Below are positions 6,819 through 54,853 of a stretch of DNA of 64,000 bases, one piece after another. Location of the stretch: the IMG/VR virus record IMGVR_UViG_3300033388_002987, positions 1 to 64,000 of that record. One strand, written 5' to 3'. How positions within the stretch are numbered: the first letter of the stretch is position 1; each line of letters starts with the position of its first letter. This DNA is from a virus. A program made the position numbers and the translations under genes. The notes beneath the pieces were generated by a model. That model saw nothing but the letters and a program-made list of their open reading frames with translations, ran no database searches and had not been told where the DNA came from.

Positions 6819-6892
6819 TGGTACGGATATTAAGAATCGAACTTAAGCTACTTGCTCCCAAAGCAAGCGTGATACCACTTCACTATATCCAT
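6819..6892 (-). tRNA. tRNA-Pro(TGG)
   Basis: Cloverleaf folded by hand: anticodon arm CTTGC-TT TGG GA-GCAAG, T loop TTCGATT, encoded CCA. Confidence 0.9.
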
Positions 6893-6966
6893 TGGATGCT
6901 CTGCTAGGATTCGAACCTAGGTTATCACAGTCAAAGTGTGAGGTCCTGCCGCTAGACGACAGAGCA
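6893..6966 (-). tRNA. tRNA-Gln(TTG)
   Basis: Acceptor TGCTCTG/CAGAGCA, anticodon loop CT TTG AC, T loop TTCGAAT, CCA. Confidence 0.95.
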
Positions 6967-6975
6967 GTATTTAAA

Positions 6976-7052
6976 TGGTGCCCAGAGTAGGAATTGAACC
7001 TACGACCCCTAGCTTTTCAGGCTAATGCTCTTACCGACTGAGCTATCTGGAC
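6976..7052 (-). tRNA. tRNA-Phe(GAA)
   Basis: Acceptor GTCCAGA/TCTGGGC, anticodon loop CT GAA AA, T loop TTCAATT, CCA. Confidence 0.95.
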
Positions 7053-7128
7053 TGGCTTCGTATCCTGGGCTCGAACCAGGGACATGCGCATTAACAGTAC
7101 GCCGCTCTACCAACTGAGCTAATACGAA
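7053..7128 (-). tRNA. tRNA-Asn(GTT)
   Basis: Acceptor TTCGTAT/ATACGAA, anticodon loop CT GTT AA, T loop TTCGAGC, CCA. Confidence 0.95.
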
Positions 7129-8622: not shown

Positions 8623-8725
8623 TACTAACCTTTTTTCCAAGAGAGTTCTCTGGGCACATTTGACTAAACCGTGTAATCATCGTTATTAGAGAAGGGTCTC
8701 TGGGCAAATAATTGCACACAAACCT

Positions 8726-14265: not shown

Positions 14266-14595
14266 ATGTCTAAACAATGCTGGCCTAAAAAGCCTATACG
14301 TAACAGGAAAGGTGTATACCTTCTCTATAATAAAGATGAGATAGTTTATGTTGGTAAGTCCCATAAATGTATGGCAAATAGACTAACTGATCACCAACGT
14401 AGTAATAAAGTATTTACTAAAGTGCATGCTTTTATTATAGAAAATGACGCCAATCTAGCAGTTGCTGAAATATACCTAATAGGTAAGTACAAGCCTAAGT
14501 ATAACGAGGAATCCATGACAACCGATGAGCTAACTATACACATAGATAATTTAGATAAAATTATACATGAAGAGGTTATCCTCCGTCCTTACTAG
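14266..14595 (+). CDS. GIY-YIG nuclease-domain protein
   Basis: KGVYLLY...VYVGKS...R...H...E.YLI..YKPKYN. Confidence 0.85.
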   Translation: MSKQCWPKKPIRNRKGVYLLYNKDEIVYVGKSHKCMANRLTDHQRSNKVFTKVHAFIIENDANLAVAEIYLIGKYKPKYNEESMTTDELTIHIDNLDKIIHEEVILRPY

Positions 14596-15307: not shown

Positions 15308-15751
15308 ATGCCCGAAACTCTATTAAAAATAGCGAGAGAGTACGACTCTGAAGCAGAATTTCGTGAGAAAAACCTGCCAAAGTACTTACTTGCAAAAAAG
15401 AAGATGTTATTAAGACAAGCTTTTCCAGAGCAAGTAGTAAACCCTAAAAATGACATAAAGGGAATTTACTACCTCTACAAAGGTAACAAAGTTGTCTACA
15501 TTGCTCAATCAGTAAACTGCTTAGAAGCAATTAACACACATACCGAAGATACTATGACATTCGATAGCTACCGTATCTTCCAACCATCAAGTGACTCAGA
15601 CCGTGCGGTCTTAGCACTTTACTTAGCCAACAAGTACCGTCCACGGTACAATACTAATATAGGCATCAATGAATTATCATTTGATATACCTAATGTAAGT
15701 ACTATCCTTGGCAAAGATATAAAAGGAACAATATGTTTAAAAGATTATTAA
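15308..15751 (+). CDS. GIY-YIG protein with one N-terminal DNA-binding repeat
   Basis: KGIYYLY...VYIAQS; conserved Arg and Glu appear replaced (possibly inactive). Confidence 0.7.
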   Translation: MPETLLKIAREYDSEAEFREKNLPKYLLAKKKMLLRQAFPEQVVNPKNDIKGIYYLYKGNKVVYIAQSVNCLEAINTHTEDTMTFDSYRIFQPSSDSDRAVLALYLANKYRPRYNTNIGINELSFDIPNVSTILGKDIKGTICLKDY

Positions 15752-16520: not shown

Positions 16521-17114
16521 ATGTACTCAACTCAATTACTTACAGAAGCAACCCTAGGTAAGCACAACATAACGGACTGGGTCCGTGATGAAATAGCTTC
16601 AATCAGACAAGAAGATATAGACTCAGCCCTTAATAGAGCTCAGTTATTCCTTACAAAAGAACGCTCAGATCTTGAACAAAAAGGCCGTGTAGAAGAGCTA
16701 CTGCTAATATATGGATTACAAGACGCGTGCCAACTTATAGTAGATTCTCTACTAAAAGCAGTAATACTTATCAAGCCAGACTTATTAATGCGTGGAGGTA
16801 AAGAAGTAGCCTTTCCAGGTGTTGCACCTATACAAGCTATTGCTACACAAATAGGCCTTGCACTACACCACGACCAAATAGACGCAGTACAAACAGGCAT
16901 CGAAATCCTCTCCGAGTTTAACGACATGGGTATCTTCGAAGTTCGTGTCGTAAAAGAGGCAGACCGTGCCGTTAACCAAAATGGCCATGTAGAAGTTCAT
17001 GGAGACTCAGCAGTAGTAATACCAAGTATGAGAATCTCAGTAGAGTTATATAGTAAGATTAATGCAACTCAATATCTACCACCAATGCTTGTAAAGCCGT
17101 TGGATTATACTTAA
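16521..17114 (+). CDS. RNA polymerase II fragment 1 (N4 gp15 N-terminal part)
   Basis: IATQIG..DAVQTGIEIL and YLPPMLVKP match the N4-type RNAP small-subunit pattern. Confidence 0.75.
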   Translation: MYSTQLLTEATLGKHNITDWVRDEIASIRQEDIDSALNRAQLFLTKERSDLEQKGRVEELLLIYGLQDACQLIVDSLLKAVILIKPDLLMRGGKEVAFPGVAPIQAIATQIGLALHHDQIDAVQTGIEILSEFNDMGIFEVRVVKEADRAVNQNGHVEVHGDSAVVIPSMRISVELYSKINATQYLPPMLVKPLDYT

Positions 17115-17122
17115 GGATTAAC

Positions 17123-17938
17123 ATGAGCAAAAGAGTAACTAGCCACCTATTAACGAAAGATATCGACTCTTTAATACTAGGCCGTGGTAATGACATAGGT
17201 CAACACATCAACAAGAACGCTATCAATAGACTACAATCAGTCCCTTGGTCTATCAATGAAGAAATCCTACCATTCCTTCACGATACTCTTAAGCCATCAG
17301 AGGAAACTCTAACAGTATTCGAAACCACTGAACGCCTAAAGGCGTACAAGCTTCGTGACAAAGAGACAGACAATACCATTGACTACCTCTTAGAAAATGG
17401 TAACCAGTTTTACTTCGGCTGGAAATTTGATAAAAGAGGGAGGCAATATTCTCAAGGCTACCACATCAACCCACAAGGGAACGAATATCGCAAAGCAATG
17501 TTATCCTTTGCTAACAAGAAACTACTTACAGTAGAAGGCATGGGATACCTTAAAATAGACATCGCAAACTGCATGGGCTATGACAAGCTCACTTGGTTCG
17601 CTCGTAAAATGAAAGCAGGTGCTATCATTGCAGATGTTTTCAAAGACGGTCGCTCAACAGACCGTAAAATCCGTGAGTATTCAGAACAAGCTGATACTCC
17701 TCTACTCTTCATCAAAGCTATGTACGCTTGGAAAGAGGGAGTTATCAACGGCAACCCTATAGGACACAATATGGGTCTAGATTCGACGGCATCGGGTTTA
17801 CAGTACCTTAGTGCATTAAGCGGTTGCTGTGTAACTGCTCGTCATGCGAATGTACACGCCTTAATTGAGAGAACTTATACGGAAGAAGCGCAGAATCGTT
17901 TAGAGGAGTTAGAGGCAGAACTAAAACTTCTAGATTAA
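17123..17938 (+). CDS. RNA polymerase II fragment 2 (DxxGR and motif A)
   Basis: DKRGRQYSQGYHINPQG; YLKIDIAN; LDSTASGLQ (catalytic motif A). Confidence 0.92.
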   Translation: MSKRVTSHLLTKDIDSLILGRGNDIGQHINKNAINRLQSVPWSINEEILPFLHDTLKPSEETLTVFETTERLKAYKLRDKETDNTIDYLLENGNQFYFGWKFDKRGRQYSQGYHINPQGNEYRKAMLSFANKKLLTVEGMGYLKIDIANCMGYDKLTWFARKMKAGAIIADVFKDGRSTDRKIREYSEQADTPLLFIKAMYAWKEGVINGNPIGHNMGLDSTASGLQYLSALSGCCVTARHANVHALIERTYTEEAQNRLEELEAELKLLD

Positions 17939-18061
17939 ATCTCTGGGCAACTTTTTGCACACAACTTTCAGAATTTAGGCCTTTCAAATCCCTATAAATA
18001 GGCATTCACTTTTCAGAGAGTTCTCTGGAGTTTACGTCAGTTAAATAATGTAGGTACCTAA

Positions 18062-18092
18062 TAAGGCATATTTAAGGTACTTACTGTATACT
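18062..18092 (+). promoter_or_regulatory. promoter of endonuclease gene
   Basis: TAAGG..TTAAGG..TG-TATACT, then AAGGAG RBS. Confidence 0.5.
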
Positions 18093-18125
18093 ACCACATT
18101 CAAACAGACACAAAAAGGAGAGTAC

Positions 18126-18881
18126 ATGGCAAAACTAATATGGACAGAGGATAGTATAAGGGTAGAAGCCTTAAAATATTCTACATTTGTAGAATTTAAT
18201 AAAGGGGCTCCAGGAGCATATAGGAAAGCTCAGCGAGATAAGTCTATTAAGAGGCTAGCACCACATTTAGTAGCTTCTACATGTATAAAGTACACAGATA
18301 CTGATATACATAATGTAGCCCTAAAGTTCAAGACTAAGAAAGAGTTTGAACTGGCAGAATCATCTATTTATAGTATTATGCACCAACGTAAAATAGTGGC
18401 ACAATGTTGTTCCCATATGACTGGACTAACATTATGGAATGAAGAATCAATCCGTGCAGAAGCTCTAAAATATACAACTCGTAAAGATTTTAAAGCCAAC
18501 GGTAAAGGAGCTGTAGGAGCATCCGTACAACTTGGTATATATGATGAAATTTGTGCACATATGAAGGCTAAGCCAAAAGCATTAGCTCCTTCTAACTTAA
18601 AAGGTATATATTTATTGTATAAAGATACAAATATAGTATATGTAGGTAAATCAAATTGCTGTATGCTTAGTCGTATACGCTCACATAAACAGGATAAGGA
18701 GTTTAATACAGTTGAATTTTATGAAATTGCAAATCAACCAGACATAGATGTTATAGAGTTATACCTTATTAACTTATACAGCCCTATACACAATAAGGAA
18801 TCTAATAGTAATGGTATTCTAACTGTAACTATAGATAATATAGATAATGTAGTCACTAAGAAAAGTGTCTACGAGATATAA
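18126..18881 (+). mobile_element. free-standing GIY-YIG homing endonuclease with three N-terminal ~45-aa repeats
   Basis: Repeats W..ESIR.EALKY.T..EF...H[ML]; C-terminal KGIYLLY..YVGKS..R..H..E..N. Confidence 0.85.
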
Positions 18882-18896
18882 TCCGTAGGAGGAATC

Positions 18897-19646
18897 ATGA
18901 AAAGAACTAAATCACAAATACTAGCAGAAATACGCCTACTAAAGGCTAACACAGACAATTACTCTGAAACAGTAGTCCGTGCCGACCCTTACAAACTAGT
19001 TGCAGACCGTATGCTTGAAAAGCTACCAGACTGTGAAATCTTCCACGGCATGACGCCTAAACAAGTACGCTCATACTGCAAAGACCCAGTTATGACTTAC
19101 TTCTATAACTCACGCGCCGAGCCTGTTAAGGCATTCGGCGAAGATACGCCAGAACTACACGCCTTCTATGACACTCTCCAAGAACTGTTCCCAGGCGCAG
19201 TAAACGTTATGGAAGCTCTCAACGACCGTTGGGATAGCTCAGCTATGTTCCACGAACACCCCTTACCAGACGGCCACATATCCCATGTAAAAGTAATGGA
19301 AGATATCGACGGCATCCTTACCAACGAAGGTCTCAACCTTCCTTATCGCTTCAAGAAGAACCAGCCATCAGAAAATGGTACACCACTCCCAGCTAACTTC
19401 ACTCACGCCTTCGACGGCTTCGGCCCTCGCCACATAGCCACTAACGTAGACTTCGACTTCGCTCACATCCACGATGAGTTCCAAGCTCACCCTAACGATA
19501 TGGGTGCAGTACGCACTCAGTTCGTAGACTCACTTCGTATAATAGCTCAAGGCAACTACCTTGAAGACTTCTGCGAGAAAGACTTCGGCATAGAACACAC
19601 AGCATTCCTAGAGGGACTTGACTCGTCAAGTTACGCAATATGTTAG
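18897..19646 (+). CDS. RNA polymerase II fragment 3 (motifs B and C)
   Basis: RADPY; RSYCKDPVMTYFYNS (motif B); ANFTHAFDG; HIHDEF (motif C); own AGGAGG RBS. Confidence 0.92.
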   Translation: MKRTKSQILAEIRLLKANTDNYSETVVRADPYKLVADRMLEKLPDCEIFHGMTPKQVRSYCKDPVMTYFYNSRAEPVKAFGEDTPELHAFYDTLQELFPGAVNVMEALNDRWDSSAMFHEHPLPDGHISHVKVMEDIDGILTNEGLNLPYRFKKNQPSENGTPLPANFTHAFDGFGPRHIATNVDFDFAHIHDEFQAHPNDMGAVRTQFVDSLRIIAQGNYLEDFCEKDFGIEHTAFLEGLDSSSYAIC

Positions 19647-36643: not shown

Positions 36644-36884
36644 ATCAAGCCCTTGGTACCCCAATAGAGAACTGACCTATGGTCAGATCTACCACTTCAT
36701 ACGTGCCAAGACCTACAACTTATCACCATTCGACAAAGACTCAATCCAAGAAGCTAAAAAGCTAACACTAATGGAAGCACGTGATGCTTCTCCAAACTAC
36801 AAGATGTTCCTTAAAGCCGCTGTACTTGCTACAGGGCTTAGTGAGAGAACTATAAAAGGGATTTTATATAGTTCTGGGCAATAA
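36636..36884 (+). CDS. small protein with possible HTH
   Basis: AVLATGLSERTIKGIL. Confidence 0.5.
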   Translation: MPKSSPWYPNRELTYGQIYHFIRAKTYNLSPFDKDSIQEAKKLTLMEARDASPNYKMFLKAAVLATGLSERTIKGILYSSGQ

Positions 36885-37147
36885 ATTGCACATAAATCAC
36901 AAAGTCAAAATCCTCTATTAGAGGTAGGCTAATTAGCCACTATAAAGATAAAGAATTTGATACAATTTATACTTTAAAGTTTAAGTCTAAAGCAGATATA
37001 GATGTAATGGAGGTATACTTCATTAATAAGTTACAACCAGTTCATAACAAAGACAGTAATAGTAGCACCACATTAACAGTGGAAATAGCTAACATGGGTG
37101 AAGTCATCATCTCAACATTAATACACACTAAATCAAAGGATACATAG
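36852..37147 (+). pseudogene. degenerate GIY-YIG remnant
   Basis: Frame 36896-37147 reads ITKSKSSIRGRLISHYKDKEF...DIDVMEVYFINKLQPVHNKDSNS, closely matching the 18126 C-terminus; upstream KGI...GNK is broken by frameshift/stop. Confidence 0.7.
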
Positions 37148-51598: not shown

Positions 51599-52579
51599 AT
51601 GACAGGTTTACAAGAATTAATTAATAAGATAAAAGCTGAGGATCACTCAGCGTACTTAGCACTGCTAAATAAGATAAATGGTGAGAAAATGGACAGGTAC
51701 GCCATTGGTAAATTATTTGCAAGTGCTACATTCACAAAAATAACTAATAATCAGTTACTACTACTACGCTCTATGAGTTTTAAAGGTGGTGATACTATCT
51801 GGCTTAGCACGTATAACCGTACACTTTCAAGCTTTGAAAATAGGTTTCAGAATACGCGTGGAGACTACCAGTTGAAATATGGTATTGATTCTCTACCAAA
51901 AGTTGATACTAAATTTATAACTACCTACCACAGAACTCAATGGCGTAAAGCTAACCCGTCTACTCGTAAGAACGGTCCTGCTAAAGGTACTCAATTTACA
52001 TTTAAAATGGATATGTTCTCACTAACCATCTTTAAAAATAGTATAAAGAACGAGTTCCTCCGCACCGAGGGTAAGAACTTTATAATGAAAGTCAATAAGG
52101 CTTTCAGTGAGTCAGAAGGTAATGATTCCCATACTAAGATACGTAATAAATTTTATGCACTGATACTTGATAATACTCCAGTACATACTAAAGCTATGAT
52201 AAATGAATTAAGTCCAACTGCTTTAAAAACTAATGGTACTTACTACATACCTGATGCTGATGAAGCAATAATAGTAGGATTCCGTTGGGGAGGTGATAAC
52301 GAAGTTAGCTACGCTACATCCTATAGCATGGACACATACTCAACTGACTTACCACTAGTAACACACAACATCGGATCAGAAGATGAACGTCACAATAATA
52401 GGTTACTATCAGCCAGCTCTATGTTACTAACAGCACACGCCTCGACAGATTGTGAAGCTTATAAGTCTGCAGCTACACGTATGGTAAAACACTTACCAAG
52501 AACTATAGTCACAGCTGCTTTAGCAAAAACACAAGCCGTAGCGACACTACGCTCAATCTTAAAGGAATCAAATGAATAA
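51599..52579 (+). CDS. hypothetical protein, 326 aa
   Basis: AAGGA RBS. Confidence 0.7.
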   Translation: MTGLQELINKIKAEDHSAYLALLNKINGEKMDRYAIGKLFASATFTKITNNQLLLLRSMSFKGGDTIWLSTYNRTLSSFENRFQNTRGDYQLKYGIDSLPKVDTKFITTYHRTQWRKANPSTRKNGPAKGTQFTFKMDMFSLTIFKNSIKNEFLRTEGKNFIMKVNKAFSESEGNDSHTKIRNKFYALILDNTPVHTKAMINELSPTALKTNGTYYIPDADEAIIVGFRWGGDNEVSYATSYSMDTYSTDLPLVTHNIGSEDERHNNRLLSASSMLLTAHASTDCEAYKSAATRMVKHLPRTIVTAALAKTQAVATLRSILKESNE

Positions 52580-54853
52580 TACAATCACAACAATACTCTC
52601 TACAAACATTAAAGGGCAATTAGCCGGAGCAGACATAGGTGGAGGTATCTGTATAGCTGGGTCACCAGGTATCGGTAAAACTCAAACTATGTACAAGATA
52701 GCTAAAGACTTAAACATGGAGATTGTGCAAGTATCAATCCCAGAAGTATCCACTGAAAACCTTTCGGGTTAACAAACAATTGAACATTACACTTAAAACC
52801 TACCACGATGAGAATATAAAAATGATAATGGTAGTCTAAAGTAATAATGTTTAATTTGTTACAGCCCCTCTACACAGTAATGTGTATAGCAAATCCCTTT
52901 AATTGCTGGGAACTCTTGTAAGTTTTAATACTACAATAACCGTGAAAACAGGTTATGAATGTTTAACAAATTAAAAATAGAGACAATCAGCAGCCAAGCT
53001 CCGTATAGGAGAAGGTTCAACGACTAGTGCATTGTGCACGTACACCTAAGTAGGTGGAAATGGGGGACATCTTTAAACTAACTTTAAGAAATTTCTCGGT
53101 ATACTTACTTATCTAATTTAAGGAAGTACAATGGGAAATAAAGAAATTTTCAAACCAGTCAACTCTAAATACGGTACTCGTTACGAAGTGTCAAATCAAG
53201 GAAGACTGAGAATAACAACTAAGTGTGGAACAAAGCTCCGAACAGGTAGCTTACACCCTCAAATGCATACTACATATGTAAAAGCATCATTATCTAATAA
53301 TGGTATAAACTACACAGTACATATGCACAGACTAGTTGCCGAGGCATTCATACCGAATCCTGACAATAAACCATTCGTAAATCATAAAGATAAGGATGGT
53401 ACTAATAATAATGTATCTAATCTAGAGTGGACAACTCCCTCAGAGAATATGCAACATTCCGCTGATAATCTAGCCCTTAATAGTAAAGCTAAAAGCACAA
53501 AGAAACGTATAACTACGGTAACTCTTGACAGCTTTGAAGATTACTTAACATATATAGGCAAAGACATCGGAGGACGTACTATTATTGGTGTACAGTATAA
53601 GAAACTAACAATAGGCAATAAGCCTGTATTTAAGTGGTTTGGTGTTTATACTTGTAACAATTGTCAAGACGAAATAAGTAGCCCTTGGAATCAAACAATG
53701 AGAAGATCACTAGAAGGACGTAAGCAATTTTGCTTACAATGCTCTAGAAAGTTAAAACCTAAAGATGAAGATATAGTCTAGCCTACACAGAGATGTGTAG
53801 CTGCAGGTAATGCTGCGGACACAGCCTAACGAGCTGTGTTGAATATAAGCGATTCCAGACTTCCTTGACGCTCAACATATGGATGCTTACTCAGTAACTG
53901 GTACAACTGACTCACAAGCTACTAAATGGTCTGTACCTCAAATTATTGAAACAGTAAACCGCTTAGCTGCTACACCCGGCAAAGCCGGTTGTATCTTATT
54001 CATAGATGACTTGCACCGTGTAAACATGGCAGTAGCTCCCTACTTATACGGTCTCCTTGGAGAACGTAAACTAGGCTCTTATAGACTTGACGGAAAAGTG
54101 GCTATCATGGGCGCAATGAACGACTCTGACGAAGCAGGCTTCTCAGGAGTAGACAGCCCTATTAAAGATAGAATTGGTATTTTACCAGTTCCATTCGACT
54201 TTGAATACTGGTTTGATAACTTTGGTAAACACCTACACTTCTATGTAAGTTCATTCTTAAAAACTCATTCTAGCTATGTACAAGAAGATGAATCAACTAT
54301 GATTGAGCAATTTGCTACACCGCGTTCGTGGTCACACCTTGCAAATGAGTTTGAACTATACGACTTGGATTTCATCCAAGCACATACTACCTTACTTGCA
54401 AAACAAAAGGTATCTATTGCAGCTGCAAATGAACTTCAAAAACACATCGCATACGTTGAGGCAATTGACTTCACAGCTAAAATCAAAGCTAAGCAACCTA
54501 TCAATATAGCTGGACTTAAACCTATTGACCAGATCTTGTATGCATACATCATTAACTATGTTACTGATATAGAAGATGCAAAATACGTTATGAGTCTTAT
54601 TGATGGTAATATTGATTCAGCTAACTTCATTGGCTTCATAATAGGAGAGCTTTACAACAAGTTCATCGCTAAAGAAGGTGGCAAGCATATCAACGACGGC
54701 CTTACAATTATCTTAGAAAAATTGCTTAAATCAGATTACAACCCAGAATCTTATAATAAACCTATGAGTAAGGCTGTAAAAGAAACTTATGACAAGTTAT
54801 CATTCGCTGAACACGATAAGTTGTTCGCTGTAGCGTCAGAGTTTATACATTAA
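52572..54853 (+). CDS. AAA+ ATPase (N4 gp24-like), spliced: exon 1 52572-52769, exon 2 53852-54853
   Basis: Walker A GSPGIGKT in exon 1; splicing restores ENLSG-IPDFL; Walker B LFIDD and ATPRSW in exon 2. Confidence 0.9.
52770..53851 (+). mobile_element. group I intron (IA2-like)
   Basis: Exon ends in U paired to G in P1 (GGGU/GCCC); P AATTGCTGGGAA, Q AATCAGCAGC, R GTTCAACGACTAG, S AAGATATAGTC; terminal G at 53851; in-frame ligation. Confidence 0.93.
53131..53781 (+). CDS. intron-encoded NUMOD4/HNH homing endonuclease
   Basis: HRLVAEAFIPNP..VNHKD..NNNVSNLEW; located between R and S. Confidence 0.9.
   Translation: MGNKEIFKPVNSKYGTRYEVSNQGRLRITTKCGTKLRTGSLHPQMHTTYVKASLSNNGINYTVHMHRLVAEAFIPNPDNKPFVNHKDKDGTNNNVSNLEWTTPSENMQHSADNLALNSKAKSTKKRITTVTLDSFEDYLTYIGKDIGGRTIIGVQYKKLTIGNKPVFKWFGVYTCNNCQDEISSPWNQTMRRSLEGRKQFCLQCSRKLKPKDEDIV

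Follow-up and report, generated by a model that had tools for sequence, protein, structure and literature searches.

The window analysed here, 64,000 nucleotides covering positions 1 to 64,000 of the IMG/VR virus record IMGVR_UViG_3300033388_002987, carries on its plus strand three successive open reading frames (ORFs) homologous to T7-like RNA polymerase, with an ORF of 251 amino acids between the last two. The two polymerase pieces that meet at this second break carry extensions of opposite charge, and it is with these extensions and the gene lodged between them that the present report is concerned. Pfam and PHROG scans assigned PF00940 and N4-like RNA polymerase families to the three polymerase ORFs. 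The genes and the parts of the junction are as follows.

16521..17114, plus strand: RNA polymerase II fragment 1, 197 amino acids; match to phrog_2166 (N4-like RNA polymerase), expectation value (E) 7.5e-9
17123..17938, plus strand: RNA polymerase II fragment 2, 271 amino acids; PF00940, E 7e-8; phrog_2166, E 1e-48
17939..18881, plus strand: inserted endonuclease cassette, 943 nucleotides, consisting of a 187-nucleotide leader (17939-18125) and the GIY-YIG ORF
18126..18881, plus strand: free-standing GIY-YIG endonuclease gene, 251 amino acids, with its own ribosome-binding site
18882..18896, plus strand: spacer of 15 nucleotides with the ribosome-binding site of fragment 3, containing AGGAGG
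18897..19646, plus strand: RNA polymerase II fragment 3, 249 amino acids; phrog_2051, E 3e-40

The source genome is a record of 117,954 base pairs (bp) with direct terminal repeats. No near-identical phage was matched by megablast against cultured phages, and tblastn against the same group matched 420 records, all of them N4-like (Schitoviridae) and all with less than 60% identity (approximately 31-37% among the matches listed). Because of the family matches, the N4-like relatives and the match of a structural model of the enzyme to N4 RNA polymerase II (RNAPII; 6dt7_B, Z-score 17.4), the locus is identified, on sequence grounds, as coding for the T7-like RNA polymerase of N4 RNAPII type that serves the middle genes of an uncultured N4-like phage.

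In phage N4 the enzyme consists of gp15 (269 amino acids), comprising the N-terminus, the thumb and the DX2GR motif, and gp16 (404 amino acids), with motifs A, B and C in its palm and fingers (PMC4496689). The same two-gene layout, RNAP1/RNAP2, is found in Erwinia phage S6 and Stenotrophomonas phage Philippe. The present polymerase is divided differently. Fragment 1 is the counterpart of the N-terminal half of N4 gp15/RNAP1, its C-terminus aligning to residues 109-131 of the RNAP1 protein gp028 of Erwinia phage S6, and together with residues 8-140 of fragment 2 it makes up the RNAP1 equivalent. Residues 139-244 of fragment 2 and residues ~23-249 of fragment 3 make up the RNAP2 equivalent, fragment 3 contributing the fingers with motif B, the palm motif C and the C-terminus. 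In fragment 2 the C-terminal half of canonical RNAP1 is thus continuous with the initial ~100 residues of RNAP2 in its canonical form: residues 15-135 of fragment 2 align to 6dt7_A 146-268 and its residues 140-247 to 6dt7_B 7-102, while residues 22-191 of fragment 3 align to 6dt7_B 105-266. The canonical N4 break (gp15|gp16, between T/DxxGR and motif A) is therefore fused here, fragment 2 running through that site uninterrupted, and two other breaks are present instead, one inside the gp15 equivalent and the other between motifs A and B of the gp16 equivalent. Profile alignments place the latter between residues ~102 and ~106 of N4 gp16 (PDB 6dt7_B) and at ~561-568 of T7 RNA polymerase, a region which we take, from published T7 domain limits, to be the passage from the palm to the fingers.

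The catalytic motifs are distributed over fragments 2 and 3 as follows.

17429-17443, plus strand: T/DxxGR motif DKRGR, in fragment 2
17780-17782, plus strand: motif A Asp220, in fragment 2
19080-19106, plus strand: motif B K62 and Y70, in fragment 3
19470-19475, plus strand: motif C H192 and D193, in fragment 3

All of these residues are invariant in 34-35 homologues. With T/DxxGR and motif A in fragment 2 and motifs B and C in fragment 3, the active site is composite. The break between fragments 1 and 2 has no extra residues, and it is not constant. In a metagenomic protein of 461 amino acids (P0107) fragments 1 and 2 are fused, with the acidic tail described below still at the end, so that the first break is labile and the second is constant among everything found. 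It is clear that the subunit layout of the N4-type RNA polymerase II is not fixed: the enzyme can lose the canonical break by fusion and acquire others. Two N4-like species with gp16 in two genes were mentioned, without analysis, by Lenneman and Rothman-Denes (PMC4496689); no description of the three-piece layout or of the tails turned up in full-text literature searches.

Oppositely charged extensions at the second break

The residues by which fragments 2 and 3 exceed the canonical enzyme lie directly at the break.

17855..17935, plus strand: acidic C-terminal tail of fragment 2, residues 245-271, the 27 residues after the conserved ARHANV
18897..18977, plus strand: basic N-terminal head of fragment 3, residues 1-27, preceding RADPY

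The tail is rich in glutamate up to the stop codon, and the head is rich in lysine and arginine. According to profile alignments these ~54 residues (27 + 27) take the place of a loop of a few residues, which bears out the sequence-only reading of this locus, where a Glu-rich end of fragment 2, a basic start of fragment 3 and about 50 residues outside the conserved path had been noted. The tail consists of a short strand-forming stretch followed by an amphipathic helix with a hydrophobic stripe at positions 256, 260, 263, 267 and 270, and the head of an amphipathic helix (approximately K5-A17) with the stripe I8, I12 and L15, followed by a strand-forming stretch (Y22-V27). The hydrophobic positions are spaced 4-3-4-3, and a stripe of the heptad a/d type is conserved on both helices. 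The predicted helices comprise 16 and 13 residues, about two heptads, and gave weak, sub-threshold Pfam matches to helical families (E ~0.02).

A homologue search of 5.8 billion proteins yielded approximately 35 homologues of fragment 3 (247-256 amino acids, 50-71% identity), all starting with the same basic head, and approximately 35 homologues of fragment 2 (~270 amino acids, 50-73% identity), all ending with the same acidic tail. The extensions are conserved about as well as the proteins that carry them, the mean majority-residue frequency being 0.70 both in the head and in the remainder of fragment 3, and 0.67 in the tail versus 0.69 in the remainder of fragment 2. The tail is conserved in 36 homologues, and L263 and L267 are invariant among the fragment 2 homologues; in the head, I12, R13 and Y22 are invariant and R3, K5, I8 and L9 are at least 90% conserved (34 sequences). 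The presence of the tails in every relative found means that the pattern is not due to chance. Over 11 loci, 16 of the 18 invariant columns (6/6 in the tail and 10/12 in the head) are encoded by two to four synonymous codons, and this codon turnover at invariant residues indicates that the constraint acts on the protein. The net charge ranges from -1 to -5 in the tail and from +1 to +4 in the head, with the polarity kept in all of 16 genome pairs. Taken together, the comparisons support the view that this pair of oppositely charged tails is specific to the clade and under selection.

A polymerase gene found in three pieces with a selfish element inside might also be regarded as decaying, the pieces being pseudogene remnants and the tails a meaningless read-out to the next stop codon. 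The catalytic motifs are, however, all intact, the three-piece layout and the conserved tails persist down to 50% identity, and the turnover of synonymous codons reflects purifying selection on the protein, so that decay of the gene is hardly credible.

The extensions go with the split. In an exhaustive profile search of 1.84 billion representatives the split type formed one 50% cluster only. The spacing from the motif A glutamine to D.Y was 23-24 residues in 65 of the 73 unsplit relatives in which motif A could be located and 30 residues in one (a simple pattern search gave no usable spacing in the other 7), and no hairpin insert of about 50 residues was seen among the 73. The nearest unsplit protein (P0040, 353 amino acids, 42% identity) has a short loop and no tails. 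No protein with fragments 2 and 3 fused was found, either by a word-index search of longer proteins, which is weak evidence, or by the exhaustive profile search. As judged from these alignments, the tails are absent from the unsplit relatives.

Many database proteins of other N4-like phages were seen to start with a methionine inside the helix after motif A. They were considered as further split forms and rejected, since it is more probable that they are ORFs of a second exon, downstream of an intron at motif A, as in one of the related loci treated below (L005). This suggests that introns at the motif A position are widespread and are mistaken for split genes.

An origin of the extensions by overlapping tandem duplication was considered as well, the head resembling by eye the helix after motif A, and the tail the first fingers helix. 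It was rejected (profile-profile local score, P = 0.21 from 2000 column shuffles).

The junction and its endonuclease cassette in related genomes

A scan of viral contigs with a single protein recovered no relatives. Alignment-based scans of viral and metagenome contigs gave ten related loci, and the same break with the same tails was found in all ten. In L004, L057, L058, L059, L060 and L062 the stop codon of fragment 2 is followed after 1-17 nucleotides by the ATG of fragment 3, with no gene between. L005 also has a direct junction (15 nucleotides), but its fragment 2 gene contains an intron. The relative frame of the fragment 2 and fragment 3 ORFs is 0, 1 or 2 depending on the locus, and the fragments must therefore be translated separately, by independent or coupled initiation, a fusion by read-through or frameshifting being excluded.

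Restoration of a contiguous polymerase by RNA splicing, protein trans-splicing, read-through or frameshifting would be suggested by the group I introns found in this gene in relatives and in another gene of the window. No structured RNA family was detected in 17600-19200, even at E<=10 (Rfam), although the group I intron model (RF00028) found an intron at window positions 52847-53135 (50.2 bits), and with the same model group I introns were detected in the fragment 2 genes of L005 (5409-5715, 69 bits, right after the Ser-Gly of motif A) and L061 (2377-2630, 78 bits). The leader of the endonuclease gene (187 nucleotides) is not unusually structured (z -1.39), and the idea of a structured RNA at the break, a group I intron included, was accordingly rejected. 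Only 1-17 nucleotides separate the ORFs in relatives, in three relative frames, and fragment 3 begins with an ATG of its own, preceded by a strong ribosome-binding site. A split intein was also rejected, because the extensions measure 27 residues each and fragment 3 begins Met-Lys-Arg; intein fragments are larger than such tails, and the fragment 2 and 3 sequences have no Cys, Ser or Thr after a His-Asn at the junction position. Restoration of a single chain by any of these routes thus appears extremely improbable.

The intron at 52847-53135 interrupts a gene for an AAA-type ATPase (52572-54853), with a Walker A exon at 52572-52772. The gene appears to resume within the ORF 53879-54853, and an intron ORF (53131-53781) has HNH-like motifs. 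The genome therefore contains a classical element of intron plus endonuclease, but elsewhere than at the polymerase break.

The gene at the break is of another kind. Its ORF has N-terminal repeats of approximately 150 residues and a probable C-terminal GIY-YIG domain, phrog_20046 matching residues 2-151 (E 1.6e-28). The match to PF01541 is weak (E 0.0013, 19.5 bits, below the gathering cut-off of 22.6), and the GIY..YVG..R..H..E..N positions are present when the protein is aligned with its paralogues, one of which passes the PF01541 cut-off. The sequence-only reading was correct in placing a GIY-YIG gene here, 15 nucleotides before fragment 3 and with no intron core. It had further proposed that the split arose when this endonuclease entered a gene until then unbroken, where the gene encodes a helical hairpin's tip, and it is on this point that the related loci disagree with it. 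The endonuclease is found at the junction in one of 11 genomes and is missing from the same site in all ten related loci, which nevertheless have the same break and tails. This distribution already suggests that the endonuclease is confined to a terminal branch of the clade. A search for endonuclease-less alleles with a contiguous hairpin had been named as a check of that proposal; the endonuclease-less alleles found are still split (stop, 1-17 nucleotides, start) and bear the same tails.

The position of the cassette can be given precisely. It ends at the TAA of fragment 2 on one side and at its own TAA followed by the conserved spacer on the other. In L005 the spacer core TCCGTAGGAGG follows the stop codon of fragment 2 directly, within 15 nucleotides that are almost letter for letter the same as those here. 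As the L005 spacer corresponds to the nucleotides following the endonuclease TAA, the cassette was inserted exactly behind the stop codon of fragment 2. The same core precedes fragment 3 in L055 and L061, where the junction is occupied by small ORFs (L055:86-293 and L061:3410-3682, of ~60 and ~87 amino acids) that belong to no recognised family, are unrelated to the endonuclease and each end in a TAA directly 5' of the core. The most similar relatives among those with a readable junction, L060 and L062, have partial fragment 3 copies 74-75% identical to that of this genome and lack the endonuclease. The comparison identifies the junction as an old intergenic site that collects insertions.

In L006 (5953-6203) the junction holds approximately 250 nucleotides of degenerate copies of the motif C region (fragment 3) and of a fragment 1 segment, flanked by a repeat of approximately 24 nucleotides; it looks like a recombination scar, though it could be an assembly chimera.

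There are four GIY-YIG copies in the genome including that at the junction, one of them broken, and paralogues are also found in other intergenic regions, here as well as in relatives. The L055 contig carries a full-length homologue of the junction endonuclease 3.3 kb from its own junction. The other three paralogues in the window, located at 14299, 15440 and 36845 (segments 14266-14595, 15308-15751 and 36845-37114), are short forms without the N-terminal repeats, and that at 36845-37114 has two stop codons. The first 25 nucleotides of the cassette (17940-17964) recur at 8697-8721, in the early region, with 88% identity. This element is a small GCAA/TTGC hairpin whose flanks are conserved between the two sites and whose loop differs, and by chance its 21-nucleotide core would be expected to have no match. 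It could be a promoter or terminator carried by the cassette; promoter and terminator scans around the cassette gave nothing above shuffle expectation.

From these positions the GIY-YIG gene is read as a later selfish insertion that altered neither of the two coding sequences nor the site where ribosomes bind for fragment 3, and the present endonuclease is very unlikely to be the author of the split. More broadly, the split might have been made by this element, or by an ancestral one since lost from most descendants, through insertion into an unbroken gene where a helical hairpin has its tip. An intact-looking GIY-YIG gene lies exactly at the break, the junction attracts insertions (the small ORFs of L055 and L061 and the mosaic of L006), and it has been proposed that tails can come with a mobile element (Crona et al., PMC3045599). 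The restriction of the endonuclease to one of 11 genomes, with the close relatives L060 and L062 devoid of it, its clean placement between a stop codon and a conserved ribosome-binding site, the location of its paralogues at other intergenic sites and the absence of an unsplit, hairpin-bearing allele among the representatives searched all argue against the present gene in particular; an endonuclease origin of the split, by whichever element, is considered unlikely.

Other features of the genome were recorded. A cluster of four transfer RNA genes lies on the minus strand at window positions 6822-7128. The genome of 117,954 bp is much larger than the 70-78 kb of the cultured N4-like phages among the tblastn matches listed. 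Contigs related to it measure 102 kb and 91 kb, which suggests an N4-like lineage with large genomes.

Predicted structure and possible role of the extensions

The two extensions were modelled with AlphaFold2 in L005, where the exon-2 part of fragment 2 and fragment 3 naturally share a frame (P0140), the single TAA being read as glycine to give a 6-residue linker. The model has a mean predicted local distance difference test score (pLDDT) of 84.8. Across the break it shows a strand (26-31), a helix (33-48), the linker, a second helix (60-72) and a second strand (77-82), after which the normal fingers follow; in ten-residue blocks the pLDDT across this element is 91, 89, 70, 93 and 86. The rest of the model superposes on N4 gp16 (6dt7_B) with a Z-score of 17.4 over 238 of 304 residues and on residues 539-883 of T7 RNA polymerase with a Z-score of 13.7, leaving ~60 residues unaligned. 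When fragment 2 was folded alone, the terminal helix (254-270) was kept with pLDDT 86-89 and the motif A region (217-247) fell below 50, in line with a dependence of that strand on the motif C hairpin that fragment 3 supplies.

The sequence-only reading had pictured the tails as a charge-complementary coiled coil and had named structure prediction as a check. The prediction was run, and the L005 read-through gave strand-helix-turn-helix-strand with pLDDT of about 90. The opposite charges, kept in 16 of 16 pairs, and the hairpin-like model agree with that picture. The long coiled coil did not hold up, the element being predicted as a short two-strand ribbon topped by two helices. The models thus fit a short ribbon with a helical pair across the break.

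The split separates T/DxxGR and motif A from motifs B and C, so that catalysis needs an assembly of the pieces. The best-supported reading is that the oppositely charged tails pair and hold fragments 2 and 3 together, and we regard this as probable. In this phage clade the enzyme is made as three separately translated polypeptides. Most likely the acidic end of fragment 2 pairs with the basic start of fragment 3, and the predicted form is a short ribbon of two strands on which two amphipathic helices lie antiparallel as a cap. Such a clasp would be non-covalent, would stand in for the lost peptide bond and would raise the affinity and the register of assembly.

Several observations weigh against this pairing. 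The strand-strand and helix-helix contacts in the P0140 model are deduced from secondary structure and pLDDT only, the covalent linker of 6 residues favours a hairpin, and in the tail half the model had no depth of alignment to draw on, short tail rows having been misplaced by MAFFT. The helices are only 13-16 residues long, which makes a stable stand-alone zipper doubtful. The magnitudes of charge in tail and head showed no covariation over 16 related pairs (rho -0.14, p 0.61), a comparison that is underpowered. Furthermore, in the split NrdA of phage Aeh1 the fragments bind one another without their tails, the tails being required at a step of higher-order assembly (PMC3045599), and conserved tails can thus serve another purpose.

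One such purpose would be that of a polymerase appendage that docks a gp2/Drc-like single-stranded DNA-binding protein, DNA or the membrane, the break being incidental and the interfaces of the protein bodies sufficient for assembly. The strong conservation of the element and its one highly charged face would suit this role. N4 RNAPII depends on directly binding cofactors (PMC4496689), both the canonical N4 break and the break between fragments 1 and 2 work without tails, and the Aeh1 tails are dispensable for fragment-fragment binding (PMC3045599). On the other hand, the element is confined to the split clade and missing from its unsplit relatives, which is unexpected for a role unrelated to the split, and the opposite charges of its halves are more in keeping with pairing between them than with one surface for a ligand. 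An appendage role is accordingly rated as rather unlikely, and pairing of the tails is preferred.

It is a more tentative step from pairing to the proposal that the extensions are an autonomous heterodimerising clasp that evolved with or after a natural fission between palm and fingers, with no mobile element involved; this is possible and is put forward with reserve. As to origin, the data do not distinguish between a hairpin that was inserted and then cut, tails that grew after the cut, and an ancestral mobile element.

Comparison with known split enzymes

The closest published case is that of Aeh1 NrdA-a/NrdA-b, where the tails are unique, of opposite charge, essential for activity and located at a break occupied by mobE (Crona et al. 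2011, PMC3045599). Both systems are split phage enzymes, essential in Aeh1, with oppositely charged tails at the break that are absent from unsplit homologues, with a free-standing endonuclease gene between the pieces and with no splicing. Unlike in Aeh1, the break and tails described here are conserved across a clade, mostly without the endonuclease, their polarity is reversed (acidic C-terminal tail, basic N-terminal head) and the enzyme is a T7-like RNA polymerase. The Aeh1 tails act in dimerisation of the heterodimers and not in joining of the fragments, which is the putative role of the tails here. Similar tails at other fragmented genes were predicted by Crona et al. (PMC3045599), and tail-like extensions of opposite charge have been noted in T4 gp39 and gp60 (PMC3045599). 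The T4 topoisomerase gp39/gp60 is likewise a phage enzyme split at a site with a mobile endonuclease gene (mobA). According to a bioRxiv abstract, T4 gene 60 also uses translational bypassing; nothing comparable was seen here.

With N4 RNAPII the present enzyme shares the family and the role in an N4-like genome, and both are naturally multi-subunit, minimal T7-like polymerases. The N4 enzyme is broken between T/DxxGR and motif A (269 + 404 amino acids) and has no tails, in contrast to the 197 + 271 + 249 amino acids found here, with 54 extra residues at the break between motifs A and B. An engineered parallel exists in T7 RNA polymerase, which when cut at residue 601 gains more than 10-fold in activity from antiparallel SynZIPs (Segall-Shapiro et al. 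2014, PMC4299498). Here as in that SynZIP 17/18 system, in which the fragments are co-expressed, the cut lies in the fingers region and bears an antiparallel helical pair (predicted in the present case), and three- and four-piece versions of the SynZIP polymerase work as well. That system is man-made, with long designed zippers, whereas the present split is natural, lies at about T7 561-568 and has helices of about four turns, predicted to sit on a two-strand ribbon.

The cassette itself resembles the Seg GIY-YIG endonucleases of T-even phages, which have their own ORF and ribosome-binding site between conserved essential coding sequences, are present or absent among related genomes and occur as several paralogues per genome. 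In contrast to the Seg proteins, the GIY-YIG domain is C-terminal, behind approximately 150 repeat residues, and its Pfam score is under the threshold; a homing function is putative.

Oppositely charged tails conserved at a site of gene fission would have here their second natural example, and the first in a polymerase. That such tails might be a general feature was proposed by Crona et al. in 2011. The present case is clade-wide and independent of the endonuclease, and it separates two events that are entangled in Aeh1, namely fission with tails and the arrival of a mobile element. A natural split site (~T7 561-568) and a compact natural clasp may be usable in engineered split T7 RNA polymerases. 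If the extensions are indeed an autonomous clasp, they would be the natural counterpart of the SynZIP trick, transferable to other split polymerases.

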